This document shows, one piece after another, positions 1 through 55,509 of a stretch of 64,000 nt of DNA. The notes under the pieces were generated by a model. The model made no database searches. It was not told the DNA's origin and saw nothing but the letters and a program-made list of their open reading frames with translations. The position numbers were made by a program, and so were the translations under genes. Where the stretch lies: assembly GCF_003148745.1 (NCBI RefSeq), contig NZ_QGGU01000001.1:11536-75535 (forward strand), read 5' to 3'. The stretch's first letter is position 1. Every line of letters starts with the position of its first letter. This DNA is from Pleionea mediterranea. Its GTDB lineage: Bacteria; Pseudomonadota; Gammaproteobacteria; Enterobacterales; Kangiellaceae.

Positions 1-1
1 T

Positions 2-2317: not shown

Positions 2318-2397
2318 GGAGTTTGAACTTTGATTGAGCCGCTAGAGCGGCTCACAACAAACTCTTAGTAACATTAACTCCCTAAAGGAGAATTGCT

Positions 2398-6609: not shown

Positions 6610-6688
6610 TCGAGCAATGGGCGTGCTGCATTTGCGGCTCGCCTGATTGTTTATAAGACAGGGGCGGTCACTTTGTAACCGTATCGCC

Positions 6689-6717
6689 TTGACACAAATT
6701 GGCGCTCTCTATACAAT
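6689..6717 (+). promoter_or_regulatory. Candidate sigma70 promoter of the str operon
   Basis: -35 TTGACA at 6689-6694 and -10 TACAAT at 6712-6717 are separated by a 17-nt spacer, about 80 nt upstream of the rpsL start. A GCCCTCAAAGGCAGGGC hairpin lies in the leader. Confidence 0.5.
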
Positions 6718-6798
6718 GCCCGCCCTCAAAGGCAGGGCTCATAGGGGGTTTTGTCTTTTTGTAGTCTAGTTTTAAATCTAGGAGCTGGAGTTTAATTA

Positions 6799-7170
6799 AT
6801 GGCAACTGTTAATCAGCTGGTACGCAAACCTCGTAAAAAGGTTATCAAGAAAAGTAACGTACCTGCACTTGAAGCTTGCCCGCAGAAGCGTGGTGTATGT
6901 ACTCGTGTTTACACGACTACTCCGAAGAAACCAAATTCGGCACTTCGTAAAGTCGCTCGTGTGCGTTTAACAAACGGATACGAAGTAACGTCTTATATCG
7001 GCGGTGAAGGTCACAATTTGCAGGAACACAGTGTTGTAATGATCCGTGGTGGTCGTGTTAAAGACTTACCAGGTGTTCGTTATCACTGCGTACGTGGAAC
7101 GCTTGACCTTGCAGGGGTTAAAGACCGCAAACAAGGTCGCTCGAAGTACGGAGCAAAACGACCTAAGTAA
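6799..7170 (+). CDS. rpsL: 30S ribosomal protein S12
   Basis: 123 aa. [12 protein letters not shown]...[11 protein letters not shown]...[13 protein letters not shown] is near-identical to enterobacterial S12. A GGAGCTGGAG RBS precedes it. Confidence 0.98.
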
Positions 7171-7306
7171 TGCTTTGCATTATCTGGGACGTACCTAACT
7201 TATCCAGATTGTGAATCAATCTGAAACATAACATTCCATTCTTACAATTTGTTCGAATGTGAGTAAGGCCGGGCTAAACCGATATCCATCGTCAGTCCCG
7301 GGTTAA

Positions 7307-7795
<489 letters not shown>

Positions 7796-7887
7796 GCGAT
7801 CGCTTTTGCGATCGGTAATCGTTTTGGTTATTACCACTTTGATGACTATGGTTACAGCAGCACACATAATGACGAGAGGTTTCTGTC

Positions 7888-9981
7888 GTGGCGCGTAAAA
7901 CTCCCATTGAGCGATATCGTAATATAGGAATTTGTGCCCACGTGGATGCGGGTAAAACCACCACCACTGAACGCGTTCTGTTTTATACCGGTCTGTCACA
8001 TAAGATCGGTGAAGTCCATGATGGCGCTGCCACCATGGACTGGATGGAGCAAGAGCAGGAACGTGGTATTACCATTACCTCGGCAGCGACCACGACATTT
8101 TGGCGTGGTATGGATGCTCAGTACCCTGAACACCGCATCAATATTATTGATACTCCGGGACACGTTGACTTCACTATCGAAGTTGAACGTTCGTTGCGAG
8201 TACTCGATGGTGCGGTAGTGGTTTTCTGTGGCTCATCAGGTGTTGAGCCTCAGTCCGAAACGGTTTGGCGACAAGCCGATAAATACTCAGTTCCGCGCAT
8301 GGTCTTTGTGAATAAGATGGACCGTGCCGGCGCTGATTTTTTGCGTGTGGTCGATCAAATAAAAAATCGATTAGGCGCACGTCCGGTTCCGGTGCAATTA
8401 CCCATTGGCGCAGAAGATGAGTTTGAAGGGGTCGTAGACCTGCTGAAAATGAAAGCCATTTACTGGAGCGAAGACGACAAAGGCATGACCTTTGAATACC
8501 GTGACATTCCAGAAAACATGCAAAGTGAATGTGATGAGTGGCGTAGCCACATGGTTGAAGCTGCGGCTGAAGCCTCAGAAGAATTAATGGACAAATACCT
8601 GGACTCAGGCGAGCTGTCCGAAGATGAGATTAAAAAAGGATTGCGCATTCAAACATTGGCGAATGAGCTGGTGATTGCCATGTGCGGTTCTGCGTTTAAA
8701 AATAAAGGTGTGCAGGCGGTATTAGATGGCGTAATTGATTATATGCCCGCGCCTGTGGATGTAAAAGCAATAACCGGTGTGCTGGAAGATGGCGAAACCC
8801 TTGAAGAACGTCCGGCCGACGACAAGGCTCCTTTTGCTGCATTAGCGTTTAAAATAGCCACCGATCCGTTTGTTGGAACCTTAACCTTTTTCCGAGTGTA
8901 TTCTGGTACGTTAAAAAGTGGCGATCAGGTTTTTAACTCCGTAAAAGAGAAAAAAGAGCGCATTGGCCGAATCGTTCAAATGCACTCCAACAGTCGAGAA
9001 GAATTAAAAGAAGTACTTGCCGGTGATATTGCCGCAGGCATTGGCTTAAAAGATGTCACCACCGGCGAAACTCTCTGCTCGATGGATCATAAAATTATCC
9101 TTGAGCGTATGGAGTTTCCTGAACCGGTAATATCGGTCGCCGTGGAACCTAAAACCATCGCCGATCAAGATAAAATGAGCATGGCGCTTAGCAAGTTAGC
9201 GCAAGAAGATCCATCATTCCGTGTCGAGACCGATGAAGAGTCCGGGCAAACGATTATTTCTGGCATGGGTGAGTTACATCTGGATATTATCGTTGATCGA
9301 ATGAAGCGAGAATTTAATGTTGTTGCCAATATCGGTAAGCCTCAAGTGGCGTACCGGGAATGTTTGCGACAAGCGGTCGAACAAGAAGGCAAGTTTGTTC
9401 GTCAGTCAGGCGGTCGTGGTCAGTACGGTCATGTCTGGTTGAAAATAGAGCCACAAGAATCTGGCTTTGGTTACGAATTTGTTAATGAAATTGTGGGTGG
9501 TTCGGTACCCAAAGAATACATTCCGGCTGTCGATAAAGGCATTCAGGAACAAATGCAAAACGGCGTGCTGGCCGGTTATCCCGTGCTGGACGTAAAAGTT
9601 ACCTTATTTGACGGCTCCTATCACGATGTCGACTCGAATGAAATGGCATTTAAAATAGCAGGCTCCATGGGGTTCCGGGCGGGTGCGTTAAAAGCAAAAC
9701 CAGCATTGCTCGAACCGATGATGAAAGTTGAAGTGGTTTCCCCAGAAGATTACATGGGAGACGTTATGGGCGACTTAAACCGTCGTCGTGGAATGGTGCA
9801 AGGTATGGACGACGGTGTCGGCGGCATAAAAATAATCCGTGCTGAAGTGCCCTTGTCAGAAATGTTCGGCTACGCCACTGATTTACGCAGTGCGACACAG
9901 GGGCGAGCCAGTTACTCGATGGAATTCTTCAAGTACGCAGAAGCGCCATCGAACATCGCAGAATCAATCATTAACGGTTAA
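7888..9981 (+). CDS. fusA: Elongation factor G
   Basis: 697 aa. GTG start followed by [30 protein letters not shown], which contains the GTPase P-loop AHVDAGKT. Follows rpsG. Confidence 0.97.
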
Positions 9982-10021
9982 CTTTTACTTTTAATATTAA
10001 AACACACACAGAGGGTATCTC

Positions 10022-11206
10022 ATGTCTAAAGAAAAATTTGAACGTAATAAACCCCACGTAAACGTGGGAACCATTGGCCACGTTGACCATGGTAAAACCA
10101 CCCTGACTGCGGCCATGTGTACCGTATTGTCCAAGAAATTTGGCGGTGCAGCGAAAAACTTCGCAGAAATCGACAATGCGCCAGAAGAGAAAGAGCGTGG
10201 TATCACCATCTCTACATCACACGTAGAGTACGAAACAGAAGCGCGTCACTACGCCCACGTTGATTGCCCGGGCCACGCCGATTATGTAAAAAACATGATC
10301 ACCGGTGCGGCACAGATGGACGGCGCAATCCTTGTTTGTTCAGCGGCGGATGGCCCAATGCCACAAACCCGTGAGCACATCCTGTTATCACGTCAGGTAG
10401 GTGTACCAAAAATCGTTGTATTCTTAAACAAATGCGACATGGTAGACGACGAAGAGTTGTTAGAGTTGGTTGAAATGGAAGTGCGTGAGTTATTAGACGC
10501 TTACGAATTCCCAGGCGACGACACACCTGTTATTCAAGGTTCAGCGCTTAAAGCGTTAGAAGGCGACGCCGCTTACGAAGAAAAAATCGTAGAATTAGCG
10601 TTAGCGCTTGACGAGTACATTCCAGAGCCAGAGCGTGCGGTAGACCAACCGTTCTTGTTACCCATCGAAGACGTCTTCTCAATCTCAGGTCGTGGAACGG
10701 TTGTGACCGGACGTGTTGAGAGCGGTATCGTAAAAGTTGGCGAAGAAATCGAAATCGTGGGCATGAAAGACACCACCAAAACAACGGTAACCGGTGTTGA
10801 AATGTTCCGTAAACTTCTTGACGAAGGCCGTGCTGGCGACAACGTAGGTGTACTTCTACGTGGAACCAAGCGTGAAGACGTAGAGCGTGGTCAGGTATTG
10901 GCGCACACAGGTACGATTACGCCACACACCAAGTTCGAGTCAGAAGTTTATGTATTATCAAAAGATGAAGGTGGTCGTCACACACCATTCTTCAAAGGGT
11001 ATCGTCCACAGTTCTACTTCCGTACAACGGATGTGACTGGTGCGGTAGAATTACCCGAAGGCGTTGAAATGGTAATGCCTGGTGATAACATCAAAATGGT
11101 TGTTGAGCTTATTGCTCCAATCGCAATGGACGAAGGTCTTCGCTTTGCAATTCGCGAAGGTGGTCGTACTGTTGGTGCTGGTGTTGTTGCTAAAATTCTG
11201 GACTAA
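10022..11206 (+). CDS. tuf: Elongation factor Tu
   Basis: 394 aa. [31 protein letters not shown]...[24 protein letters not shown] is canonical EF-Tu. An AGAGGG RBS precedes it. Confidence 0.98.
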
Positions 11207-11240
11207 TTTATTTAGCTCGAAAATTTATCAGTATATAAAA

Positions 11241-11266
11241 GGGCGCTCATTGAGCGCCCTTTTTTA
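11241..11266 (+). terminator. Rho-independent terminator after tuf
   Basis: GGGCGCTCAtTGAGCGCCC is a perfect inverted repeat followed by TTTTTT, about 35 nt after the tuf stop. Confidence 0.8.
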
Positions 11267-11460
11267 TGGTTTGTATTAAGTCTGCTTTTTTAAACAGTAA
11301 ATCTATAGTAATTAATAGTTAACCTTTCTTCGATCAAAGCTCTGGCCCTTTCTATTTGTAAAAATTACAGTTTCAGCAATTAAAACTTTAAATATCTCAA
11401 AAAGTAGGTATTATTGCGTTTTTTTGGACATCTATCTTATTTGAATGGAGTTATAAAAAT

Positions 11461-12354
11461 ATGAAACTAAAAATATTTATATCTATTGTTGCTATTGTCA
11501 TTCTTTCTGGCTGCAGTACGTTAACACCGGAACAGCGTTTTCCAAACTTTGCCAAGCAAGTCGGTACAGTTAAATCTATCGATGTAGTCGTTGATGCGAC
11601 AGTTTTATCTGATATTAATGGCGATAATATTGGTTTTAATTTAAAGAAAAATCAAATCGCGCGGGAGCAGGTTGCAACTTCAATTCGTTCAGAGTTTAAC
11701 AAAAAGGGCATTGAGGCAAACATTATTTTTGCCAGTAGTGGACTATTTATAGAGCCCTCAAAAGAAGAAAGTGAGACAAAGTTTGTATTGTCTGATGATT
11801 GGAAAGAGACCGGAGAAGTATTTGTCGAACCTGTTGCAAGTAACAGTGAGTCAGTCTGGTTAACAGAGAAAGGGAAGAAGCTACTTAAAAAGATCAGCTC
11901 TCGTGGATTAGTTGAAAATAAGTCGGAGAAAAGCGACAAGGCGGAGAAGCGCTATAAAGAAAAAGTAGCGAGTACACCAAAGGTGACGGCTGCAGATATC
12001 CCAGAGTCAGTGAGCTTGCTATCTTCAGATTTATTAGCGGTTATTCGTTATTCTGCGAATGAAGTGAGTACAGGGAAAAGTGTAGGCGCTGGAATTGCGA
12101 CAGGAATTTTAACGGCGGTTCTAACGGGTGGAATGTATGTAAGTGTCTCCATGCCAGTTTCATCGATGAATATTGATGCAACTCTGTTTGATCTGAGTAA
12201 GAGTGATGTTGTTTGGAGTAATAATCTCTATTTACAAGGTGCGCAAGTTGATACAGAAGTGGTAAGTCCAAATGTAGTTACTCTGTTAGGGCCATTACCT
12301 TCTGCAATTGCAGATACGGCATTAGAAAAAACTGATTTGGAAGCTAATCGCTAG
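11461..12354 (+). CDS. Lipoprotein of unknown function with C-terminal glycine-zipper segment
   Basis: 297 aa. The signal peptide MKLKIFISIVAIVILSGC has an LSGC lipobox. A Lys/Glu-rich middle is followed by GKSVGAGIATGILTAVLTGGMYVSV, a Gly-zipper-like motif. The gene is very AT-rich and preceded by a GGAG RBS. Confidence 0.6.
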   Translation: MKLKIFISIVAIVILSGCSTLTPEQRFPNFAKQVGTVKSIDVVVDATVLSDINGDNIGFNLKKNQIAREQVATSIRSEFNKKGIEANIIFASSGLFIEPSKEESETKFVLSDDWKETGEVFVEPVASNSESVWLTEKGKKLLKKISSRGLVENKSEKSDKAEKRYKEKVASTPKVTAADIPESVSLLSSDLLAVIRYSANEVSTGKSVGAGIATGILTAVLTGGMYVSVSMPVSSMNIDATLFDLSKSDVVWSNNLYLQGAQVDTEVVSPNVVTLLGPLPSAIADTALEKTDLEANR

Positions 12355-12542
12355 AGTTCAAAGGGCAGGTTAAAAAGTCCTGATATTTTAAATTATGGAG
12401 TAAAATTTCATTAGTAGCTATTTTGCTCAATAGCTTAAAACAGGAAAGTAACAAAATAGCCCTCCCGAATAATATTAAGGTAGGGCTTATAATTCTACAC
12501 TGTTATTACAAGTTTGAAATTTAAGTTAAGAAGAGAAAGGAA

Positions 12543-13112
12543 ATGAGAAATATTGTTTTTGTTATATTAGCAACTGCTCTTGCTCAACCCGTGTTAGCAG
12601 AGAATTCGAGCTCGTTTAGCGCTGGCTGGTATGGTGATATTCACCTAGGGCAAACCGGCACGTCTTTAAAGCAAGGAGAGCAAAGCTTTGATTTTTTATC
12701 CATCGGTGGTTCCTATGGTTATCAATATAATGAGTATTTTGCCGCTGAATTTTTTGGTTCTTTTGCTACTGATGGCGAGCATGACGATATCATGAGTGCA
12801 ATCCTCGGACAGGAAGCTAAGGTGAAATTCGATGCTATTGGTGCATACTTGGTGGGCAAAACTCATGGGAAATATTATTTAAAAGCTCGAGTTGGGTTAA
12901 TTAATTCAAGATTCACATATTCCGCGGGAGGTTTTGAGGATGAAACTGGTAGTGATACCGGCTTTTCCTACGGATTTGGAGCCGGAGTAAGCCTAGAGAA
13001 GGTTAATATCGAGCTTAATTATCTTCAATTTCCGGATGTGGACGATCCTCTTTTTAACTCAACAAGCTATGAATCGGATCAGCTTACAATTTCTATCGGA
13101 ACACAATTTTAA
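12543..13112 (+). CDS. Small outer-membrane beta-barrel protein (OmpA/OmpW-like 8-strand class)
   Basis: 189 aa. Cleavable signal MRNIVFVILATALAQPVLA. Alternating aromatic/hydrophobic pattern and a C-terminal ...ISIGTQF ending in Phe, as in the OMP beta-barrel signature. A GAAAGGAA RBS precedes it. Confidence 0.6.
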   Translation: MRNIVFVILATALAQPVLAENSSSFSAGWYGDIHLGQTGTSLKQGEQSFDFLSIGGSYGYQYNEYFAAEFFGSFATDGEHDDIMSAILGQEAKVKFDAIGAYLVGKTHGKYYLKARVGLINSRFTYSAGGFEDETGSDTGFSYGFGAGVSLEKVNIELNYLQFPDVDDPLFNSTSYESDQLTISIGTQF

Positions 13113-13133
13113 AATACAATAAATAAATTCTAC

Positions 13134-13200
13134 TAGCTCAGATTTAAACCGACAGTTACCCGTTTCATTTATCGTTGTCTGTCATTTTAAATCTGAGCTA
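13134..13200. repeat. Long inverted repeat (15-bp perfect arms, extendable to about 22 bp) downstream of the OMP gene
   Basis: TAGCTCAGATTTAAA at 13134-13148 pairs with TTTAAATCTGAGCTA at 13186-13200. Inner GACAG and CTGTC extend the stem. A T-run (AATTTTTCT) follows, so it may be a terminator or a protein-binding palindrome. The right inner arm reads CTGTCAT, a Pho-box half-site. Confidence 0.45.
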
Positions 13201-13620
13201 AATTTTTCTCATCCGAAATTTCTTCTCATCCTTTTGTATTTCAACAGCCATTCGATTGCAGTTCACTTACCTTGACGGGTGCGTTCATTATTGTAGTAGT
13301 TCATCCGGTCGCCCAGATCCTTTTGTAATTCTTTTAATATACCGTAAGCTTTTTATGTAATGAGACTGGATAGGACTCATTTAGGATTGTTTTATGGAAA
13401 CGCTCATATATATCATTGATTTGCGGTGACATAACCTTCGTCTTTGTGTGTTCGATATCATTGATTGTCAAATGAAGCTGGTAATCAAAAGGAATAATAG
13501 AAAAGTGGGGGCTATTTGTCCCTACAGGTTCTTGCTGGCTAAATAGCTGTGCACTATTCACACTTAATCAACACCATCATCTGATAAAGTAGTCTTATCA
13601 TCGAAAACAGGAGTTAATGG

Positions 13621-15864
13621 ATGAAACTTTTCAGTCTGGTGGCGTTAATGTGTTTCAGCTATTCTTGGGCACAAGCTAAAAACATTAGGCAGTTAATATC
13701 AGTTGAGCAGCAGGGCTGGCAGAATCTGGTACAGGTACAAGCCAAAAGTAAAGAAGACTTTTTTAAACTCAGTATTTCGCATCACGGTGAATTACTGGAA
13801 AGTAATAAAGATGCGCTAACGGTTACCTTAAATCTTACCGACGCACAGCTCGAAAAACTTAACAATCTGGGCTTTGATATCACCGTCGCCGACAGTTGGA
13901 AGCAACAGCGTAAAGCGCAGCTGAACCAATTGCTTGACCGTAAGCTTACCAAGCAACTAACAGGTATTCCCAACTACCCATGTTATCCGACGGTGGAAGA
14001 AACCTATGCTGATGCCGAACAGTTGGCGACAGACCACAGTACTCTAACGGAGTGGATAGACGTAGGCGATTCCTGGAGCAAAACGCGAGAGCGCGGTGGT
14101 TATGATTTAAGGGTATTAAAAATTACCAATCAGTCTGTTACAGATGAAAAGCCCGTATTGTTTGTACACAGCGCTATGCACGCCCGTGAATACACCACCG
14201 CAGCACTCAATCTGGCGTTTGCCAAACAACTACTCAACAGCTACGCTACCGATGCAGATACTCGATGGATTGTTGATCATCATGAAGTTCATTTAATGTT
14301 TCAGATGAATCCCGATGGTCGAAAGTACGCAGAAACCGGCGTGTTATGGCGCAAAAATGTCAACGATCTTCACTGTCAAAGCTCTCCGGGTATCGATTTG
14401 AACCGTAACTTCAGCTACTTTTGGAATTCAACCGATGGCGTTGGCTCCAGTGGCGATGCGTGTGCCAATACTTATCGCGGTCCTTTGGCTGCTTCAGAGC
14501 CCGAAACAGAGGTAGTTGAAGCTTATGTGCGCAGTATTTTTAGCGACAATCGGGGCGAAAGCGATTCTGACGCAGCACCTCTCGACACGCCGGGAATGCA
14601 TATTGATTTACACAGCTACAGTGAGCTGGTTTTATGGCCCTGGGGTCACGATTACGATCCGGCACCTAATGGCCCGCAACTACAAACACTCGGTCGCAAG
14701 CTCGCAAGTTTTAATGACTATTATCCAACGCAAAGTACCGGGCTGTATCCGACCGATGGTACCAGCGACGATGTTAGTTATGGTGAGTTGGGTGTTGCGG
14801 CGATTACTTTTGAGCTGGGTACTGCGTTTTTTCAATCTTGCGAGGTGTACAACACACAAGTAAAGCCAGATAATCTGGAGGCATTAAAATATGCGGCCAA
14901 AGTTGTTCGGGCGCCATATAAGTTGCCTGCTGGCCCCGACCTATTACAGCTGCGAGGAAATACCAGTTCACATCCGCAAATACTTCCTGGTGATACATTA
15001 TCGATCACGGCAACTGCAGACGACACACGATTCAACAACAGCAATGGTGATGAGCCGACGCAAGATATTACTGCGGTATCGCTTTTTGTCAACACGCCAC
15101 CTTGGCAGATGGGGACAACCCCGATTCCCATGACCGCCAGTGATAGCAGTTTTAATAGCGGCGTTGAAGCGGTCAGTGCTGAAGTTAATACCACGGGGTG
15201 GGCACTTGGTGAGTATGTGATTTATATACAAGCACAAGACAGCGAAGGCAACAATGGACCCGTCAGTGCTTTACTGGTGACCGTTAATAGCAACCAAAGT
15301 CCTTTAGCTGATTTCAGTGTAACGTGTGACTCCCTCGATTGTCATTTCGATGCATCCAATAGTAGTGATGACTCATCTATCGAAAGTTACCAATGGCAAC
15401 TCAGTGACGGCGCTCAGTTAACCGGTGTTACTGCTAATCACCGTTTTGTTGAATCAGGAAGTTACCAGATAACCTTAATAGTAACGGACGACCGAGGCGC
15501 AACCGGTGAGCAAAGCATGATGCTAGAAATAACAGCTCCAAATCAGAATCCTGAGGCTGAATTTAGTGTAAGTTGTGAACACCTAAGCTGCACATTGAAT
15601 GCGTCCAGCAGTACCGATGACACTGCAATAAGCAGTTATGATTGGCAATTAAGCGATGGAGCGTCACTTAGCGGACAAACTGTCAGTCATAGTTTTTCTA
15701 ATGCTGGTAGCTATTCTGTTGAACTAACCGTAACCGATGACGCAGGCGCAAACGATGTTCGCACACGAAGTATCACCGTTAAAGCAAAATCGTCTAGTGG
15801 TGGTGCATTAGTCTGGTTCAGCTTAATGTTTTTAACTTTAATTAGGTATCGAATAAAATACTAA
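13621..15864 (+). CDS. Secreted M14-family zinc carboxypeptidase with propeptide, two PKD domains and a GlyGly-CTERM sorting signal
   Basis: 747 aa. Signal peptide MKLFSLVALMCFSYSWAQA. M14 motifs HSAMHAREYTT (HxxE zinc site), NPDG and NRNF are present. Two PKD repeats (FDASNSSDDSSIESYQWQLSDG... and LNASSSTDDTAISSYDWQLSDG...) follow. The C-terminus SSSGGALVWFSLMFLTLIRYRIKY reads Gly-Gly, then a hydrophobic helix, then a basic tail. Confidence 0.8.
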   Translation: MKLFSLVALMCFSYSWAQAKNIRQLISVEQQGWQNLVQVQAKSKEDFFKLSISHHGELLESNKDALTVTLNLTDAQLEKLNNLGFDITVADSWKQQRKAQLNQLLDRKLTKQLTGIPNYPCYPTVEETYADAEQLATDHSTLTEWIDVGDSWSKTRERGGYDLRVLKITNQSVTDEKPVLFVHSAMHAREYTTAALNLAFAKQLLNSYATDADTRWIVDHHEVHLMFQMNPDGRKYAETGVLWRKNVNDLHCQSSPGIDLNRNFSYFWNSTDGVGSSGDACANTYRGPLAASEPETEVVEAYVRSIFSDNRGESDSDAAPLDTPGMHIDLHSYSELVLWPWGHDYDPAPNGPQLQTLGRKLASFNDYYPTQSTGLYPTDGTSDDVSYGELGVAAITFELGTAFFQSCEVYNTQVKPDNLEALKYAAKVVRAPYKLPAGPDLLQLRGNTSSHPQILPGDTLSITATADDTRFNNSNGDEPTQDITAVSLFVNTPPWQMGTTPIPMTASDSSFNSGVEAVSAEVNTTGWALGEYVIYIQAQDSEGNNGPVSALLVTVNSNQSPLADFSVTCDSLDCHFDASNSSDDSSIESYQWQLSDGAQLTGVTANHRFVESGSYQITLIVTDDRGATGEQSMMLEITAPNQNPEAEFSVSCEHLSCTLNASSSTDDTAISSYDWQLSDGASLSGQTVSHSFSNAGSYSVELTVTDDAGANDVRTRSITVKAKSSSGGALVWFSLMFLTLIRYRIKY

Positions 15865-15876
15865 CCTTCTTTTTTA

Positions 15877-15903
15877 AAACGCGGCACAAGCCGCGTTTTA
15901 AAA
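15877..15903. terminator. Bidirectional rho-independent terminator
   Basis: AAAACGCGGCacaaGCCGCGTTTT is a perfect 10-bp stem flanked by T and A runs, immediately after the carboxypeptidase stop. Confidence 0.75.
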
Positions 15904-16415
15904 GTTTATAGGTAACAGGGGCGAGCCATTAAAGCTTCATAGCGAATATTTAAAACATTTTTAGTAGGACTAAAAATTGGACACCTTAATCAAAGGAATT
16001 GTTAAGCACATCACTTAGCGTTATAGATCAACAGCGTATTAACATTAATTGAGACAGAGTGGTTGAATAACTGGAAATAACTTTTAAGCAAGGTTTTCCT
16101 TAATATTAATTGAAAATTAATATCTCAATATAAGAGCTGATTTCAACCGTTTTAGTTGATTTTTAAAACAAAAATACATCTATTGCGTCAATGTACGATA
16201 CAGATAAGCCCTACCTTAAAGTCCACTTAATATGGCTGTTAATTTCTATCTTTATTAAAGCTTATAAGCAGTTTCAATCTTAGAATATTTTTATTTAACG
16301 CTTAGTGACTTTCTCAACGACAAACGTAATTGCGTCGCCTACGCTTTAATTAATAACCGTAGGAACAAGCGAAGTATTACTTTTCGATTAGCACTGAATT
16401 TAATGGAGTATTGAG

Positions 16416-18635
16416 ATGATCGGTTCGGAGCGACTGGCGCAGCAATCACGCTTAGGCAATGTATTAATTGAAAAAGGCTGGATAAGTCAGGAGCAATTGG
16501 GTGAAGCGCTGGTTTATCAGCATCAACGAGAAACAAAACTCGGTGAGGCGTTAATTGAACTTGGCTTTATAAACCAATCTCAATTGAGTCAAGCGTTAAA
16601 GCGCCAAAGCTGGAGTCGTTCTACCATTGCCGGTTTGCTGTTAGCCGCCTCTCAAATGTTTATTGCTGCTTGCAGCAGTGATGGCAGTAAAGAAAACGCT
16701 GTTGAAATTACAGCCGTGGCTCACGCGAAACCATCGGTTGATATTACTTCTCCTACGGGTGGTTCCGAGTTTGATCAAAACACAACCGTTACCTTTACCG
16801 CAAACGCAAGCAATGCGAACGATGAAAATATTACCGGACAAGTTGTCTGGATTTCGGATATTGATGGTGAGCTGGGCACAGGAGGCTCCATCAGCAAAAG
16901 TTTATCGGCGGGCAATCATACCATTATTGCTGAAGTTACTGATTCTAACGGTGCCGAAGCGTCAGAGTCGATTACTATTTCGGTTTCATCGTCGGAAGAT
17001 TCAGCGCCTGTGGTTTTAATTGGCTCGCCATCAAACAGGTCATCTTTCACTGAAGGTACGGTTATTGAATTTGTGGGGGAAGCAAGCGACTCTGAAGATG
17101 GTAATCTTGGCAGTGACATACGTTGGACGTCCAGCATTGATGGTGAGTTGGGCATTGGCGACAGTGTTAACACGACGTTGAGTGCGGGCAGTCATGTCGT
17201 TACAGCAAGGGTAACCGATTCAGCTGATAATGAACGATCTCATTCAATACATCTCTCTGTACAAAGTGCTCCCGATATGGCGCCAGTCGTTTCCATTACT
17301 TCACCTGGTAATGGTTCTAGCTTTAATGCTGGCGATAATATCGCTTTTACTGCGAATGCATCCGATAACGAAGACGGCAATCTGGGTGCATCGATACAAT
17401 GGACTTCTAACATTGATGGTAATCTTGGCAGCGGATCCAGTATTACTTCGGCTCTCAGTACCGGCAGCCATGTCATTACTGCAAGCGTAGCGGACTCAAA
17501 CGGGCAGCAAGTGTCTGAAACCATCAATGTAACCGTTAACAGTGCATCAGCCACTGCGCCTCAGCTTAGTATCACTTCGCCGTCCAGCGGTTCGGAATTT
17601 AATTCCGATGAAAGCATTTCGTTTTCTGCTAATGCTTCCGATAACGAAGACGGTAATTTGGGCAGCAGTATCCTTTGGTCATCGAATCTTGATGGTCAGC
17701 TGGGGAGTGGCGCCAACATCAGCTCTCAGCTCAGCGCCGGCAGTCATACTATCACCGCATCGGTAAATGACTCGGACGGTAATCAGGTGAATAAGGTGAT
17801 TCAGTTGACTGTGAATGATGCCTCAAATGTGCCCCCAGAACTTGCTATCACATCACCTTCCAGTGGTGACAGCTTTAATGATGCTGAGGCGATCAGTTTT
17901 ACCGCGACTGCCAACGATGAAGAAGAGGGCAATATTGGCCATGCCGTACAATGGAATTCGAGCATTGATGGCGATTTTGGCAATGGTGCGAATGTTTCTC
18001 ATACATTAAGTAGTGGCAGTCATGTGATAACGGCAACTGTAAGCGACACTGAAGGTGAGGCCGTCTCACAAGTGATCAATATAAACGTAACAGAAGCAGA
18101 AGACGCTGCTCCTACGGTTGCCATTACTTCGCCTGCTGGCGGTTCCAGTATTCCGGAAAATGAAACGGTGACGTTAACGGCCACTGCTTCCGATGAGGAA
18201 GACGGTGATCTGGGAAGCAGTATCGTCTGGTATTCGGATATGGATGGTCAGATTGGCCAAGGCAGTGAAATAAGCCCTGATCTCACAACTGGAGAACATC
18301 AGATTACCGCTGAAGTTACCGACTCACAAGGTCAGTTCAGCCAGGCGCAAATTCAAATTACAGTAATCGTGGTTGACGGTGTTGCCGTTGTCAGTTGGCA
18401 GCCGCCTGTGTCAAACACCGATGAAACACCATTAAGTGGATTGGCCGGGTTTAAAATCTATTATGGTGATGACCAAAATAATTTAAACAATGTGTTAGTG
18501 ATCAATGATCCATTGCAATTGTCTTATGATTTTGACTCGCTTATCCAGGGTAAAACTTATTATTTTGCTGTGACAGCCGTTGATATTTACGGAATTGAAA
18601 GCAGAAAGTCTGAGGTTGTTTCCAAACAACTTTAA
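16416..18635 (+). CDS. MshEN-domain (c-di-GMP receptor) protein fused via one TM/signal-anchor segment to six PKD/Ig-like repeats and a C-terminal FN3 domain
   Basis: 739 aa with a GGAG-N7-ATG RBS. Residues 12-35 (RLGNVLIEKGWISQEQLGEALVYQ) and 41-64 (KLGEALIELGFINQSQLSQALKRQ) are two tandem 24-residue motifs separated by a 5-residue spacer. Both match the MshEN consensus RLGxxLIxxG(I/F)(L/V)xxxxLxxxLxxQ. Basic residues (KRQSWSR) are followed by the hydrophobic stretch TIAGLLLAASQMFIAAC. Six ~92-aa repeats follow, each ITSP..G..F......I.F.A.A.D.EDG.LG..I.W.S..DG.LG.G......LS.G.H.ITA.V.DS.G. The protein ends in an FN3-like WQPPVSNTDETPLSGLAGFKIYYG...GKTYYFAVTAVDIYGIES. Confidence 0.75.
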   Translation: MIGSERLAQQSRLGNVLIEKGWISQEQLGEALVYQHQRETKLGEALIELGFINQSQLSQALKRQSWSRSTIAGLLLAASQMFIAACSSDGSKENAVEITAVAHAKPSVDITSPTGGSEFDQNTTVTFTANASNANDENITGQVVWISDIDGELGTGGSISKSLSAGNHTIIAEVTDSNGAEASESITISVSSSEDSAPVVLIGSPSNRSSFTEGTVIEFVGEASDSEDGNLGSDIRWTSSIDGELGIGDSVNTTLSAGSHVVTARVTDSADNERSHSIHLSVQSAPDMAPVVSITSPGNGSSFNAGDNIAFTANASDNEDGNLGASIQWTSNIDGNLGSGSSITSALSTGSHVITASVADSNGQQVSETINVTVNSASATAPQLSITSPSSGSEFNSDESISFSANASDNEDGNLGSSILWSSNLDGQLGSGANISSQLSAGSHTITASVNDSDGNQVNKVIQLTVNDASNVPPELAITSPSSGDSFNDAEAISFTATANDEEEGNIGHAVQWNSSIDGDFGNGANVSHTLSSGSHVITATVSDTEGEAVSQVININVTEAEDAAPTVAITSPAGGSSIPENETVTLTATASDEEDGDLGSSIVWYSDMDGQIGQGSEISPDLTTGEHQITAEVTDSQGQFSQAQIQITVIVVDGVAVVSWQPPVSNTDETPLSGLAGFKIYYGDDQNNLNNVLVINDPLQLSYDFDSLIQGKTYYFAVTAVDIYGIESRKSEVVSKQL
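16725..18370 (+). repeat. Six tandem ~276-nt coding repeats (PKD/Ig-like domain array)
   Basis: Periodicity is visible at DNA and protein level. GATGGTGAGCTGGGCA recurs at ~16862 and ~17140. The motifs ...ITSP..G.S.F... and ...DNEDGNLG... recur every ~92 aa. Confidence 0.8.
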
Positions 18636-18842
18636 CTGAGTGACCATAACGTGCTAAGCAAAATAATGATGTTAATGAACAAAAACTCAAGAGCAATGAA
18701 TCATAAATATCAATATTAGGTTCGGTTATTTCATTTGTAATGATATGTTACTAAAAATAAACTGTGTTTATATGCATCAATGTGTTCATTAAAAGATATT
18801 CTGTTAGCATCCTCATTCGTTTTTATAACATAGAGTTGTTTT

Positions 18843-19031
18843 ATGAAATTTTTTATTGTTAGCTTAATTGTTGTTTTAAACTTTGCTATATCTGGCTGCG
18901 CAACGAATGATGTACAGAATTACCCTGACCAGGCGAAATCAGAGCAGCCTAAGCAGGATACAAAGGAAGAAAAAAAGCAGAGGAACTGTCAACCTAAACG
19001 TACTGGCTCTCGTATTGGCGGACGCTGTTAA
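18843..19031 (+). CDS. Small lipoprotein (~42-aa mature, Lys/Glu-rich, 2 Cys)
   Basis: 62 aa. MKFFIVSLIVVLNFAISGC has an ISGC lipobox. The overlapping ORF at 18883-19080 was rejected in favour of this frame because of the signal peptide. Confidence 0.45.
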   Translation: MKFFIVSLIVVLNFAISGCATNDVQNYPDQAKSEQPKQDTKEEKKQRNCQPKRTGSRIGGRC

Positions 19032-19180
19032 ATTAAGCAAAGGTTGTATTTCTATTAAAGCTGCACCTTTAATGAAGTAAAAAGGGCAGCTTTGTGTAGG
19101 TTCAAAACTTTAGAGTTTTTCAAATAATTCAAAGCAACTTGTCGATATGTAAAGCCTACAGTTTAATTCTATCTTAATGT

Positions 19181-19711
19181 TTAGCAATCGGCCGTCACCA
19201 CAGATACGGTACAGTCTGGATTACCAAACGAATCATAAATTACATAACAGCCCTGATTGGTTGGCACGGAAAAGCCGGGAATGTCATAGCCGATTAATGT
19301 GTATTGATTGTTGATCTGACTGATGAGATTGGTGCCAGACAATTCGATAAAATCCAGCATGGTAAGTTGATCAGCAATTTCAGCAACGCTCTCGGGACAT
19401 AAATTTCGCCAGTCCACTTCTGCTGATCCAAAAGGAAAATTAATAACATAAGCCTGTTGGCCTACGCCACCCGGATTGGTTGCGGCAACTGTCAGTCCTG
19501 AGGCCAATGCCTTGGCTTTGGTCATGCCTATGGTTGAACGGAGTCCCCCAGCAATGCCGTTAAGAGTGCTCGCACGAGCGGATGACTGTATATCGATAAA
19601 TTTACTGGCTGCGACGGTTGAAAGAATGGCTAAGATAGTAATTACAACCACCAGTTCGATCAGGGTAAAACCCCTTGTTTTAACACTGATTCCTGCAAAG
19701 CTTTCATGCAT
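19181..19711 (-). CDS. Type IVa pilin, MSHA-like (orphan; no assembly genes nearby)
   Basis: 176 aa. Leader MHESFAGISVKTRG, then FTLIELVVVITILAILSTVAA: a class III prepilin signal with Glu at +5 and a hydrophobic N-terminal helix. The C-terminus carries a Cys pair (DCTVSVVTADC). An AAGGA RBS precedes it. Confidence 0.85.
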   Translation of the reverse strand: MHESFAGISVKTRGFTLIELVVVITILAILSTVAASKFIDIQSSARASTLNGIAGGLRSTIGMTKAKALASGLTVAATNPGGVGQQAYVINFPFGSAEVDWRNLCPESVAEIADQLTMLDFIELSGTNLISQINNQYTLIGYDIPGFSVPTNQGCYVIYDSFGNPDCTVSVVTADC

Positions 19712-20240
19712 TGTTTTTATTGTCCTTATTACTGCAGCACCTACTTAGTATAACCTTAATATAGCAATAGTGAATAGTGTCGAAAGATGTTCCGGTTTAT
19801 TGCTGGCTCTCTTCGAACTGTCCAATGTTAACTCTCCATTGTTAATGGTTGGTGGCGTTTCCTCCGTTAACATTGAGATTACCGCTCATAACACAAATAC
19901 TATTGTTTGCTGAACAAAGTTTAAACGGATTTTACCTTGAAATCAGATAGTTAGGTAAGGTTAAAGCGTCATTACTTTATAAAAAGTAGCGGAGAATAAT
20001 AGACCTGTAAAGTAATTTTGCTCTGTAAACCTCGAGCGGTAATATCCATAGATAGGGCAGTTAGCGAGTGAACACTACAGGGTTGGATAGATAAAATATT
20101 AAAGTGTAAAAATTTAGACTTGCTCTTACAGTGCCAATCAAAAGAGTTCTAGACAAACAGACAATATTATTTCGTCATAATTGGCTCTTCTGGTTTTAGA
20201 GTGACTCTAATTAAGCTCAAAATCATTCATACCGCACACA

Positions 20241-20411
20241 TCCACTGGCATGGACGCCAGTGGAAGTTATTGTCAGCCATGGAAGGCTGTCAATAACGGT
20301 GTGTTGACAGGTATGAGTGATTTTGAGGAACCCGCAGGGCTTAATTGTTGGAGCGTAGGGCCTTTTGCCTTCTTTTTGGCTCTTGAAAAAGAAGGTCGCC
20401 CATAAGGGCGA
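20241..20411. other. Highly structured non-coding region: four consecutive hairpins inside an 890-nt gene-free gap
   Basis: H1 is CCACTGGC-atggac-GCCAGTGG. H2 is TTATTGTCAGCC-atggaa-GGCTGTCAATAA, with matching ATGGA loops. H3 is CCTTCTTTTT-ggctcttg-AAAAAGAAGG. H4 is TCGCCC-ataa-GGGCGA. The region contains several CTGTCA/TGACAG motifs. No ORF of 60 aa or more is present. Confidence 0.4.
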
Positions 20412-20544
20412 AACAGAGATAATGAAATAAAAGTAGGTGTTAATCTGTTTTTAAATTTATATTTTTAAAATATCGACTGTCCACTTAAATCGTGTTCTTT
20501 TCATTTTGCTGCCAGATTGAGTTATACCTTATGCAATTAAAGGA

Positions 20545-20580
20545 ATAAAAAAAGGGACACTCATTTGAGTATCCCTTTTG
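20545..20580 (-). terminator. Rho-independent terminator of the porin gene
   Basis: On the minus strand the stem GGGAUACUCA/UGAGUGUCCC (one G-U pair) is followed by UUUUUUU, about 20 nt after the porin stop. Confidence 0.7.
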
Positions 20581-20601
20581 ACGAATGACTAAATGTCTAA
20601 C

Positions 20602-21597
20602 TTAGAACTTTTGCTCTAAGCCAACGCCAAACCAGGAGTAGTCCTTGTTGTTTGCGTCATCGGAACTGGTGTAGAAGGTAAACAGTTTGGTTTGCTTGCC
20701 AAGCTTAATATCCCAACCCAGAGACGTTGTGTCGTTATCCCAGGTTAATTCATCGCTTTCACCGGTTTGAAGTTTTAATGTGTGGTCGCCAGTTTTATAA
20801 GCAATGCTCACCAGTACACCTTCTTCATCGTAAGTGCCGTTATCAAAGTCATTGTAGATAGCGCCGAACGTCCAGTTATCCATTTTATATTGTGTGGTAA
20901 CACGGGTTGTTTTGGTGTCTTCACCGCTGACGTCATTGTCTTGAGCCAAAGCAACAAAGATATTGTCGTTAGCGTATTCAATTGACATGGAGCTGGCATC
21001 CGTTGCATCACGAGTCAAAAGAATATCTGGTGTATTTGGGTCATTGTCATCATCAACCAGAGTCGAATTTTCCAATTCGCCCTTCATTGTCATGGTGGCT
21101 AATTTAACTTTTAAACCGCCGGCAAATTTAGGTGAGGTGTATTGGAAAAAGTTATCTGCACGAACTTCACCTTGAAACAGGTTTTTAATGTCGCCTTCAA
21201 GGTCATTGAATAAGTCAACTTTACCTTGTGCTTTTTTTAATGGGGTGTCGTGACGCCCTGCAATCACTTCTCCAAAGCCGCCCGCTAAACCAATAAATTG
21301 ATTACGCGCTTTGATGTTGTCTTTAGAGCCTTTTGATTGGTCGGTAGTGTCCACTTGCCACTCAAGCTTGTAGATTGCTTTTAACGAATCAGACAGCTTC
21401 GCTTTACCCTTAAGACCAAAACGCGAGGCATTGCTTTTTAACTCGTTGCCGTCAAGGCTAGCGTCTTCAGTTGATTGATAAGTCACATTGATTTTACCGT
21501 AAGGGGTAACGGTAACGTCGTTTGCCAGTGCACTTCCAGAGAAAGCAAGCGCGCCAAAAGTAACTGCCGCAGCAATTGTGTTTTTGTTGAAGTTCAT
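20602..21597 (-). CDS. Gram-negative general porin (possibly phosphate-starvation associated)
   Basis: 331 aa. Signal MNFNKNTIAAAVTFGALAFSGSALA. Amphipathic beta-strand pattern rich in Asp/Asn/Gly, with C-terminal ...FGVGLEQKF ending in Phe. Located next to the pst locus. Confidence 0.75.
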   Translation of the reverse strand: MNFNKNTIAAAVTFGALAFSGSALANDVTVTPYGKINVTYQSTEDASLDGNELKSNASRFGLKGKAKLSDSLKAIYKLEWQVDTTDQSKGSKDNIKARNQFIGLAGGFGEVIAGRHDTPLKKAQGKVDLFNDLEGDIKNLFQGEVRADNFFQYTSPKFAGGLKVKLATMTMKGELENSTLVDDDNDPNTPDILLTRDATDASSMSIEYANDNIFVALAQDNDVSGEDTKTTRVTTQYKMDNWTFGAIYNDFDNGTYDEEGVLVSIAYKTGDHTLKLQTGESDELTWDNDTTSLGWDIKLGKQTKLFTFYTSSDDANNKDYSWFGVGLEQKF

Positions 21598-21948
21598 GTT
21601 GTTCTCCCAGTTATAAGATTCAATAAAGCGTAATCAATATCGAATTGGCAGCTATACTAATTGAGTTTTGTGACAATTTTATTGCAACTGTCACTTTTTT
21701 GAAGCAAAACCATCAACTTGCTTTTTAAATGCCCAGATCCACGGCAGTGATTGCTCATTTCAATCAGCGAACAAGTGCTGTTAAAGACTGGATTGATGGG
21801 GTCGTTACTGTGTATGTCATATTTGTGACAGTGAGGCGCAAGGATAAACCAATCAAGAGGCTTTTTGAACCTTTTTAATCAAACAAAAATATCTTTAAAA
21901 TCAATAAAATAGAGCGCTAATGTTGAGGCAGGCTAAAATTATGACAGA

Positions 21949-21966
21949 CTGTCATATAACTGTCAT
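21949..21966 (+). promoter_or_regulatory. Pho box (PhoB binding site) upstream of pstC
   Basis: CTGTCAT-ATAA-CTGTCAT is a perfect match to the 7-4-7 Pho-box direct repeat, about 47 nt upstream of the pstC ATG. An additional inverted TGACAG half lies at 21942-21947. Confidence 0.8.
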
Positions 21967-22012
21967 TTTTTACCTCTACAATGGCCGGCAACTTTAAACA
22001 GGTCTGAGATTC

Positions 22013-24286
22013 ATGAACGATTTAAACAACGAATATGACACCGTCAAAGATCGAGTACGTCAACTGCTCGATAAGCAAACCGATAGTGGCCATCACACAT
22101 TCAGGAAAATCAAAGACTTAGCGGCAAAGCAGGGGATCGCCATTGGCGGTATCTCGGTGATTCTGGCCGTGGTGATGATCTTTTTCTATCTGCTGTATGT
22201 GGTGTTTCCAATTTTTAAAAGTGCGGAAATCCTTGAGCAGAAGACCTATCCTGTGGCGGTTGAGTCGTCGGTTTTATGGGGCATGGAAGAATACGGTGAA
22301 ATTGGCTTTCAATTAAAAGCCGATGGTGTTTTTTCTTATTTTGATGCCCTGACCGGTGACAACCTGTCAACTCACACTCTGTCGCTTGAGCCGGGTGAAA
22401 CAGTTACTGCTGCTCAGTTTGCCAGCCATGAAGAAAACCTGGTTATTCTGGGGTTATCGTCAGGTCGTATTTTATTGATTAAACAGGCTTTTCGCCTGAG
22501 CTACCCCGATGGTGTGCGTAAAATCACGCCGGATATTGAATACCCGTTTGGTCAGGACGGTTATGAGTTACATGATGGCCCGATTAAGAAAATATCTGCA
22601 GCAAAAAGCGAAGAGTATTTAAGTATTATCGCATCCGATGGTGATAAAACCATCCGCTACGTTCGTTATATGCTGGAAGAGTCATTCCTGACTGATGAAG
22701 TCACTTTATCTGAGCTGAATGATCAAACCATTGACAGCGAAATATCGGCCGATTACCTGTTGCATGATCCCACCGGATCATGGGCTTATGTTATTTCCTC
22801 CAAAGGAGAACTGCAGAGTTACTGGATGGAAGATGATGAGCTGGTGAGCAATGAACGCTTATCGTTAACCACTCAAAATGTACAGATTACCGATGTGAAA
22901 TTTTTGCTGGGTGGTATTTCGTTACTGGTGGGTGATTCCAAAGGTGATATTCATCAATGGTTCCCGGTAAGGGATGAAACCAATACGTATCGGCTGCAAA
23001 ATATTCGAACCTTTGAGTTCAGCGAACACCCCATCAAAACCATTTATCCTGAAATGCGCCGTAAAGGATTTTTAGCGCTGGACGGTAACAATCAACTGGG
23101 TATTTTTTACGCCACTTCTCATCGCACGGTGTTAACCCACACAATGGAAAATTTGACGCCGGAATCCGAGCTGACGATTAATTCAAGAGCCAACCATATT
23201 TTGATTTCGGGTAATGGGCAATTACAAAGCTGGCAGGTGGAAAATGAACACCCAGATTTATCCTGGTCGGCGCTTTGGGGCGAAGTCTGGTACGAGAGTT
23301 ATCCAGAGCCACAATTCACTTGGCAGTCATCGGCTTCTACGACCGATTTTGAAGCCAAGTTTTCTCTGGTGCCGCTAAGTTTCGGTACGTTAAAAGCGGC
23401 GTTCTATGCCATGTTATTTGCTATGCCTTTGGCCATTTGTGGCGCAATTTTTACCGCTTATTTTATGGCGCCAAAAATGCGCACCATGGTGAAGCCGACG
23501 GTTGAAGTTATGGAAGCATTACCAACGGTTATTTTAGGGTTTATGGCCGGTTTGTGGCTTGCGCCGGTGATGGAAGACAATTTGCCGGGCGTGTTTATGA
23601 TGCTAATGTTTTTGCCCATTTTTATAGTGGCGTTTGGTTTTGCCTGGCATTACATGCCCTCGGTTATTAAGCACAGCATTCCCGATGGTTGGCAAGCCGC
23701 GTTATTGATCCCGGTCATTTTGCTGGTGAGCTGGTTGTGTCTTGAGTTCAGTTATCCCATCGAAAAATTATTATTCGATGGCGACATGAGAGTCTGGCTT
23801 GAATCCATGGGGATTGATTATGATCAACGCAACTCATTGGTGGTCGGTATTGCCATGGGCTTTGCGGTTATTCCTACCATTTTTTCCATCGCGGAAGATG
23901 CCATCTTCAGTGTGCCACGTCACTTAACCAATGGTTCATTAGCGCTTGGTGCCAGTACCTGGCAGACACTGGTTCGTGTGGTGTTACCTACGGCAAGTCC
24001 GGGAATTTTTTCTGCGGTAATGATAGGGCTCGGTCGCGCCGTGGGTGAAACCATGATCGTACTGATGGCGACCGGTAATACGCCGATCATGGAAGCTAAT
24101 ATATTTGAAGGCATGCGAACTTTGTCGGCCAATATTGCGGTAGAGATGCCCGAGTCAGAAGTTGGCTCGTCACATTATCGTGTCTTGTTTTTAGCCGGTT
24201 TTGTCTTGTTTGTGTTTACCTTTGTATTTAACACATTGGCTGAAAACATCCGTCATCGTTTGCGTCGCAAATACGGTTCACTTTAA
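22013..24286 (+). CDS. pstC: Phosphate ABC transporter permease PstC, long form with ~400-aa periplasmic insertion
   Basis: 757 aa. One N-terminal TM, a large periplasmic domain, then the C-terminal permease core ...GIAMGFAVIPTIFSIAEDAIFSVPRHLTNGSLALGAS... (EAA-like loop). Followed by pstA and pstB. Confidence 0.85.
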   Translation: MNDLNNEYDTVKDRVRQLLDKQTDSGHHTFRKIKDLAAKQGIAIGGISVILAVVMIFFYLLYVVFPIFKSAEILEQKTYPVAVESSVLWGMEEYGEIGFQLKADGVFSYFDALTGDNLSTHTLSLEPGETVTAAQFASHEENLVILGLSSGRILLIKQAFRLSYPDGVRKITPDIEYPFGQDGYELHDGPIKKISAAKSEEYLSIIASDGDKTIRYVRYMLEESFLTDEVTLSELNDQTIDSEISADYLLHDPTGSWAYVISSKGELQSYWMEDDELVSNERLSLTTQNVQITDVKFLLGGISLLVGDSKGDIHQWFPVRDETNTYRLQNIRTFEFSEHPIKTIYPEMRRKGFLALDGNNQLGIFYATSHRTVLTHTMENLTPESELTINSRANHILISGNGQLQSWQVENEHPDLSWSALWGEVWYESYPEPQFTWQSSASTTDFEAKFSLVPLSFGTLKAAFYAMLFAMPLAICGAIFTAYFMAPKMRTMVKPTVEVMEALPTVILGFMAGLWLAPVMEDNLPGVFMMLMFLPIFIVAFGFAWHYMPSVIKHSIPDGWQAALLIPVILLVSWLCLEFSYPIEKLLFDGDMRVWLESMGIDYDQRNSLVVGIAMGFAVIPTIFSIAEDAIFSVPRHLTNGSLALGASTWQTLVRVVLPTASPGIFSAVMIGLGRAVGETMIVLMATGNTPIMEANIFEGMRTLSANIAVEMPESEVGSSHYRVLFLAGFVLFVFTFVFNTLAENIRHRLRRKYGSL

Positions 24287-55508: not shown

Positions 55509-55509
55509 A

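Follow-up and report, generated by a model that had tools for sequence, protein, structure and literature searches.

Aquatic bacteria keep exposed structures in replacement flexible islands, chromosomal regions whose contents are believed to be swapped by homologous recombination, with selection favouring surface diversity (Lopez-Perez, Martin-Cuadrado and Rodriguez-Valera 2014, PMC4033161). Such a region sits at a fixed site, starts sharply at the edge of a core gene, carries different genes in close lineages and keeps the native composition, with neither an integrase nor a tRNA gene. Classical genomic and pathogenicity islands are strain-variable accessory DNA as well, but they are linked to tRNA genes, bear integrases and deviate in composition. 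Here we analyse a stretch of 64,000 nucleotides from Pleionea mediterranea (contig NZ_QGGU01000001.1, positions 11,536 to 75,535; hereafter the window) and in particular the DNA that follows its tuf gene, tufA. The 9.3 kb from 11272 to about 20550 are probably a flexible, variable region of the replacement type, a mosaic of unrelated genes for envelope and secreted proteins.

This DNA had attracted attention for a different reason. From the letters alone, the original prediction described an AT-rich island at 11270-21600, inserted directly after tuf, where related gammaproteobacteria would have their S10 ribosomal operon; the island was taken to be a horizontally acquired adhesion module whose surface proteins act together. 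The genes are indeed those it listed. In order after tuf come a lipoprotein, an outer-membrane protein (OMP), an M14 carboxypeptidase, an MshEN-Ig-FN3 protein, a lipoprotein of 62 amino acids (aa), a prepilin and a porin, the last two on the minus strand; then follow pstC, pstA, pstB, phoU, phoB, phoR and pstS. The seven open reading frames (ORFs) 3' of tuf correspond to PWK54177-PWK54183 of P. mediterranea (Kangiellaceae), and both FusA and the M14 enzyme show 100% identity to proteins of this species.

How does the locus compare with the described systems? It shares with replacement islands the exposed products, the fixed site, the sharp edge at a core gene, the different genes in close lineages and the native composition with neither integrase nor tRNA. 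It departs from the classical ones in that these hold coherent clusters serving one function (O-antigen, flagellar glycosylation, pili), whereas the region is a miscellany of single genes plus the stump of an insertion sequence (IS). With genomic and pathogenicity islands it has in common its strain-variable content and its mobile-element remnant, but it lacks the tRNA, the integrase, the deviant composition and proven attachment (att) repeats: the whole window contains no tRNA gene and no integrase, only a truncated IS481 transposase. A further parallel comes from Escherichia coli K-12, where chiA, bfd, bfr and the gsp type II secretion genes (gspA-O) occupy 16.9 kb between tufA and rpsJ. There too accessory genes, for a secreted enzyme and a secretion system that includes pseudopilins, stand right after tufA. 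Unlike in P. mediterranea, the S10 operon still lies 17 kb downstream, and the two intervals have no gene in common.

A breakpoint just past the tufA terminator

An exact look-up of the window's Tuf protein returned ten ocean metagenome contigs. Eight of them keep the 65 nt 3' of the tufA stop codon, terminator included, and then diverge totally from the window at 11265-11272. What replaces the window sequence is one of two genes. Allele A, assembled in six samples (two with fusA upstream), codes for an FN3-repeat protein, secreted and at least 568 aa long; allele B, assembled in two samples, encodes another FN3-type secreted protein, about 30% identical to A. The contigs are near-conspecific with the window, at 98.7-99.2% nucleotide identity in tuf and 98.8-99.3% at the 3' end of fusA, compared with 86% and 79% for P. 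litopenaei. Because the fusA figure is 79% for another Pleionea species, the allele A contigs come from very close lineages. With the window's own there are three alleles, all beginning at the first base beyond the tufA terminator, in lineages whose tuf and fusA are about 99% identical: one site, with different genes in close relatives. The products are exposed in every case, for all proteins of the window allele carry a signal peptide, lipobox, prepilin or sorting signal, and A and B are secreted FN3-repeat proteins.

The left edge is therefore a genuine, base-precise polymorphism boundary just past the terminator. The original prediction placed it at 11270, after a strong terminator, and both points hold: the terminator is a hairpin with a T-run, and homology to close relatives breaks within one or two bases of that position. 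The comparison of synteny likewise bore out that DNA beyond the terminator is accessory, variable and codes for envelope or secreted proteins, the near-conspecific contigs carrying two other genes there.

The remaining two of the ten contigs run into tRNA-Trp, secE and nusG, which is the context of tufB. One of these two, the TARA contig L007 (compared with L003), has fusA upstream and so joins fusA-tuf to tRNA-Trp-secE; its assembly appears to have crossed over between the nearly identical genes tufA and tufB, a caution for any reading of metagenome synteny near tuf. A length of about 16 kb is shared by many FusA-bearing contigs and may equal the distance from tufB to tufA. Searching JGI metagenome DNA for the tufA-terminator pattern gave no match, nor did exact look-ups of the P. 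mediterranea paralog P0007 and of FusA from P. sediminis return a record.

Further afield, the DNA after tufA is different again. The complete genome of P. litopenaei has rplL-rpoBC-rpsLG-fusA-tuf followed by genes for a DegS-like protease, hppD and phenylalanine hydroxylase. In Aliikangiella marina, at least 16 small same-strand ORFs (44-344 aa; 13620-22088 of locus L088) without a Pfam match and at 35.5% GC follow tufA; a mobile or phage-like insert may account for this run, which occupies the equivalent site. Unrelated genes thus fill at least 8.7 kb after tufA in both species, and none of them is present in the window. Both keep the terminator. The tufA 3' flank is a family-wide synteny breakpoint at which the terminator itself is conserved.

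These comparisons also undo the premise that S10 directly follows tuf in relatives. The operon is not within 10-50 kb downstream of tufA in P. mediterranea, P. litopenaei or A. marina, no ribosomal protein gene lies downstream of tuf in the window, and E. coli K-12 shows that the tufA 3' flank can hold accessory genes in a model gammaproteobacterium too.

Composition and the right boundary

The predicted break in composition exists, but it sets apart the wrong side. GC content is 0.470 at 1-11206, 0.415 at 11270-21600 and 0.424 at 22000-64000. Because the region is close to the rest of the window and it is the first 11 kb that differ, the outlier is the rpoBC/str block, not the DNA after tuf. 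The M14 (0.462), MshEN (0.463), pilin (0.456) and porin (0.432) genes are at or above the background; the low mean of the region is due to some 3 kb of spacers with 28-37% GC and to three small genes. Codon usage of the M14, MshEN and pilin genes falls within the background range, that of the 297-aa lipoprotein alone being somewhat atypical for its size, and the tetranucleotide correlation of the region is merely slightly lowered. A fall in GC after tuf is seen also in P. litopenaei (0.45 to 0.41) and A. marina (0.44 to 0.355). The GC and codon profiles that the prediction had proposed as a check thus speak against an AT-rich island, and with native values for both we rejected composition as a sign of transfer. 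The case is a warning that the highly expressed rpo and str genes are a poor baseline.

The lowest-GC DNA of the window lies elsewhere, at 53769-57273 on the minus strand (0.33-0.35), and holds two tandem paralogous genes for GGDEF diguanylate cyclases of 579 and 587 aa. Judged by composition, foreign origin is more plausible for this patch than for the flagged region. At 39114-42452 lies a third GGDEF gene, whose product has Reg_prop/Y_Y_Y sensor domains.

At the other end, the porin had been counted as part of the island, with its right edge at 21600. A genome scan with PstC retrieved seven Kangiellaceae loci (L012-L017, L054). In all seven the porin is divergent from pstC and adjoins it, at 56-76% aa identity. 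Before pstC, 48 nt upstream of its start, lies an exact match to the E. coli Pho-box consensus; on the porin side the best such site has three mismatches. Because of the divergent adjacency in 7/7 relatives and the Pho box before pstC, we assign the porin to the conserved Pho/pst locus, as core rather than island: it is outside the variable region. None of tuf, fusA and the six other supposed island genes is near the porin in the seven relatives. Past the porin, these have instead a GGDEF-EAL protein, ssb, a major facilitator superfamily (MFS) transporter and uvrA, genes that the window lacks. The pstC and pstA products of P. mediterranea are long forms, of 757 and 541 aa.

The genes between tufA and the porin

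Coordinates of the features in and around the region are collected in Table 1. Do these genes form a unit? The spacers between them are 149-890 nt long, and hairpins follow tuf, the OMP gene, the M14 gene and the porin gene. Because of these long spacers and hairpins, the sequence argues for separate transcription units and against an operon. Nor do the genes travel together: in each of five other contexts (L081, L082, L084, L085, L086) the query gene is the only one shared.

Table 1. Features of the window from the str genes to the pst locus
Feature	Position	Strand	Remarks
rpoB (partial), rpoC, rpsL, rpsG, fusA, tuf	window start to 11206		
tuf (tufA)	10022-11206		
tufA intrinsic terminator	11237-11263	+	12-bp stem, 7 G-C pairs, T-run; final sequence common with relatives; alleles A and B lose homology at 11265-11271
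24-nt imperfect direct repeat, left copy	11400-11423	+	20/24 identical, 10-nt exact core; att-like candidate
24-nt imperfect direct repeat, right copy	20429-20452	+	as left copy
297-aa lipoprotein	11461-12354	+	lipobox LSGC; Gly-rich hydrophobic segment near C-terminus
16-nt inverted repeat	12475-12490 and 16204-16219		perfect; TTAAGGTAGGGCTTAT; brackets OMP gene, IS remnant and M14
Small outer-membrane beta-barrel, 189 aa	12543-13112	+	OMP_b-brl PF13505, 53 bits
IS481-family remnant	13110-13487	-	3' end and about the last 100 transposase codons; frameshifted, 5' two-thirds gone; abuts OMP stop codon
M14 zinc carboxypeptidase (carboxypeptidase T-like), 747 aa	13621-15864	+	secreted; Peptidase_M14, two PKD, GlyGly-CTERM
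Hairpin after M14	15872-15903		perfect, 14-bp arms
MshEN-Ig-FN3 protein, 739 aa	16416-18635	+	MshEN residues 12-64; lipobox Cys86; six 92-aa Ig-like (Big_7/PKD-like) repeats; C-terminal FN3
Indel segment, 536 bp	18645-19180	+	holds 62-aa lipoprotein ORF, 18843-19031
Prepilin	19181-19711	-	class III signal KTRG|FTLIELV (G-1/F+1/E+5); PF07963 32.8 bits, TIGR02532 32.3 bits
TwoAYGGAY RNA (RF01731)	20196-20348	+	candidate small RNA; 60.9 bits, gathering score 43; in 890-bp pilin-porin spacer
Porin terminator	20550-20579		
Porin	20602-21597	-	conserved divergent partner of pstC; outside variable region
Pho box	21949-21965	+	CTGTCATATAACTGTCA; exact match to E. coli consensus, 48 nt upstream of pstC start

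The 297-aa lipoprotein has no Pfam or NCBIfam match; its family, uncharacterised, is small, with 132 cluster representatives at E<=1e-3 among 1.84 billion. A 99%-identical copy is present on 9 environmental contigs; a protein scan for longer relatives gave no match. The OMP recurs as an identical protein on 16 contigs. The IS481 remnant is 73% identical in nucleotides (E=9e-50) to transposase genes on Pseudoalteromonas, Vibrio and E. coli plasmids (405 records), and after repair of its frameshift it matches rve_3 at E=3.3e-5. We rejected a plasmid or phage origin of the region: this stump alone matches plasmids and phages, and the pilin-porin spacer gave no match at all.

The C-terminus of the M14 peptidase, SSGGALVWFSLMFLTLIRYRIKY, fits the GlyGly-CTERM model TIGR03501 at 16.2 bits (cut-off 15.5); the window has no rhombosortase gene. 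The 90%-identity cluster of the peptidase has a single member, the type-strain protein, while the other genes of the region have near-identical environmental copies. An ortholog in Pleionea sp. MAG07, the nearest genome (78%), and one from JGI (79%) both stand amid unrelated genes (L085, L086). The two PKD domains of this enzyme had been regarded as shared with the MshEN-Ig-FN3 protein and as a sign that the genes cohere. They are 25-31% identical to its Ig repeats (E about 1e-4), which is generic similarity within a fold family, and a common origin was rejected.

The MshEN-Ig-FN3 protein deserves separate comment. MshEN domains bind cyclic di-GMP (c-di-GMP) through two 24-residue motifs, RLGxxhhxxGhhxxxxLxxxLxxQ, with a 5-residue spacer (Wang et al. 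2016, PMC5013675). In the window protein the motifs read RLGNVLIEKGWISQEQLGEALVYQ-HQRET-KLGEALIELGFINQSQLSQALKRQ, both of 24 residues and with the exact 5-residue spacer; the second begins with K, which the relaxed consensus allows. The segment scores 62 bits against NF053729 (cut-off 38) and matches Vibrio cholerae MshE (5HTL) at E=2.9e-7. In motifs and spacer it is like the MshEN domains of MshE, PilB/PilF and NfrB (PMC5013675; PDB 5HTL). Those domains, however, are fused to a cytoplasmic ATPase, a glycosyltransferase or similar, whereas this one precedes a signal-anchor, a lipobox and extracytoplasmic Ig repeats: a hydrophobic stretch and the lipobox IAAC (Cys86) come directly after the MshEN segment. 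In paralogs and orthologs without MshEN, from Pleionea and from environmental contigs, a lipoprotein signal peptide of the ordinary kind takes this place; an Aliikangiella homolog that lacks MshEN adjoins a TonB receptor gene.

The fusion is rare. Among the matches listed from a database of 5.8 billion sequences, only three other clusters align over the full length including the MshEN N-terminus, and all keep the motifs. The motifs are kept in P0003 and P0004 and in orthologs at 57-58% overall identity, and at this level the full-length genes (L082, L084) have other neighbours, with no M14 or pilin gene alongside. A literature search found no published description of an MshEN-lipoprotein fusion. 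Tentatively, and with the odds against it, the domain order suggests that this protein might link c-di-GMP to the cell surface in one polypeptide, with c-di-GMP binding by the cytoplasmic MshEN domain gating export, LspA processing or surface display of this adhesin-like protein. Such gating could take the form of a signal peptide under second-messenger control, or of LapD-like inside-out signalling within one polypeptide.

The prepilin is called MshA-like in UniProt and IMG and FimT family by PGAP, and no equivalog model matched. As predicted, it stands alone: across the 64 kb there is no gene for pilus assembly or a secretin. A 93% ortholog of the MshEN-Ig gene (L083) offers a close comparison. 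There the convergent pilin is retained, the 5' flank differs from about 16200, homology to the window starting at the right copy of the 16-nt inverted repeat, and an 88-bp spacer replaces the 536-bp indel segment, so that the 62-aa ORF is gone; this ORF is found on 20 other contigs. The MshEN gene (465-2684 of L083) is 92.8% identical in nucleotides to that of the window, against 99.0% for the pilin, and its differences cluster in codons 181-300 and 721-739. Such clustering points to gene conversion, either from one Ig repeat to another or involving paralogs. A functional pairing of pilin and MshEN protein was rejected, as the two are adjacent only in near-identical L083 and not at the 58% ortholog locus L082.

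Between pilin and porin lies a candidate TwoAYGGAY RNA. Its hairpin loops are AUGGAC and AUGGAA, the second departing from AYGGAY at the final base. It was not found in the porin flanks of the seven relatives, and we rejected it as part of a conserved porin flank.

Origin of the region

The comparisons establish the breakpoint at tufA, the alternative alleles, the missing linkage between the genes, the IS stump and the native composition. We infer that recombination is the mechanism and surface diversity the selective force. The region would consist of at least four independently inherited pieces: the 297-aa lipoprotein with the small OMP; the IS481 stump with the M14-PKD-GlyGly-CTERM peptidase; the MshEN-Ig-FN3 lipoprotein with the MshA-like pilin, with or without the 62-aa ORF; and the spacer with the TwoAYGGAY RNA. 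Co-existing lineages would swap alleles through homologous recombination, for which the extremely conserved tufA/str genes serve as anchor, with local rearrangement added by IS activity and deletions. Selection for diversity of exposed proteins, imposed by phage, grazers or attachment substrates, may then keep several alleles in the population.

Several points weigh against this account. Alleles A and B are known only from metagenome contigs of at most 3.3 kb, which end within 2 kb and cover the left boundary; a replacement island would have both boundaries in conserved core genes, with peaks of synonymous substitutions there as the mark of homologous recombination. Assembly chimeras across tufA/tufB do occur, as in L007, although in A and B the junction runs through the tufA-specific flank and came out of several independent assemblies. 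The species is represented in the comparison by one genome. Finally, the 24-nt direct repeat at 11400 and 20429 could point to site-specific insertion.

What of the alternatives? That the region is one horizontally acquired AT-rich island at 11270-21600, lying between tuf and S10 and encoding a cooperating surface-adhesion module, is very improbable and largely refuted. In its favour, the products are all envelope or secreted proteins and a real breakpoint marks the left edge; L083 has the MshEN-Ig and pilin genes side by side, and the 297-aa lipoprotein, MshEN-Ig and pilin genes have near-identical copies (longest contig 48,606 bp for each), so that they may be linked in a close relative. But the region has native GC and codon usage, S10 comes directly after tufA neither in E. 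coli K-12 nor in the relatives examined, the porin is core and the PKD similarity is generic. In relatives the M14 gene has no link to the others, at 90% identity the environmental clusters lack it, the 57-58% MshEN-Ig orthologs have different neighbours, and there is no operon structure, integrase or tRNA. An acquired module acting together is thus not what the locus shows. Slightly less probable still is a single element of about 9.0 kb integrated at a specific site, with the 24-nt repeats as att scars and the integrase later lost. The original prediction had proposed a search for att-like repeats at the flanks, and the 24-nt repeat is a candidate: its copies lie within the variable segment, about 130 nt from the left end and about 100 nt from the right, share 20 of 24 positions with a 10-nt exact core, and form the only such pair in the 64 kb, where block shuffles give 0.03 pairs, a significance that is overstated as the shuffles do not preserve A/T runs. 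Several points speak against their putative role as att sites: genes for an integrase, an excisionase or a tRNA are missing; divergence of the alleles sets in at 11272 rather than at 11400; the interior is itself a mosaic; and the repeat is absent from all other fetched loci, hence no empty site is known. The repeat could be an att scar or chance.

A stronger rival, though still unlikely in our judgement, does without exchange altogether. Vertically inherited Pleionea genes would have been placed between str and pst by inversions, translocations, deletions and IS activity, and the ocean alleles would belong to other species with near-identical tuf. The native composition fits this, as do the truncated IS, the M14 orthologs and Ig-FN3 paralogs elsewhere in Pleionea and Aliikangiella genomes, and the fact that the neighbours of neither flank are conserved across the family. 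Observations on close relatives speak against it. Allele A contigs match the window at 98.8-99.3% at the fusA 3' end, where another Pleionea species reaches 79%, and yet differ from the base after the terminator; and the mosaic of 92.8% and 99% identity within 3 kb of L083 indicates recombination.

As an island the region matters little: it would be one more flexible surface-protein region of a marine bacterium, and such regions are common in marine bacteria. The drop in GC after tuf and the absence of the S10 operon, which made it look foreign, are normal for this bacterial family. The proposal about c-di-GMP concerns one gene and not the whole region; if the rare MshEN-lipoprotein fusion is functional, it would be a new coupling of c-di-GMP to the display of a surface protein. 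For Pleionea, the tufA terminator marks the base-precise edge of a locus that varies at the population level, and it may be usable as a marker when the diversity of strains is tracked in ocean metagenomes.

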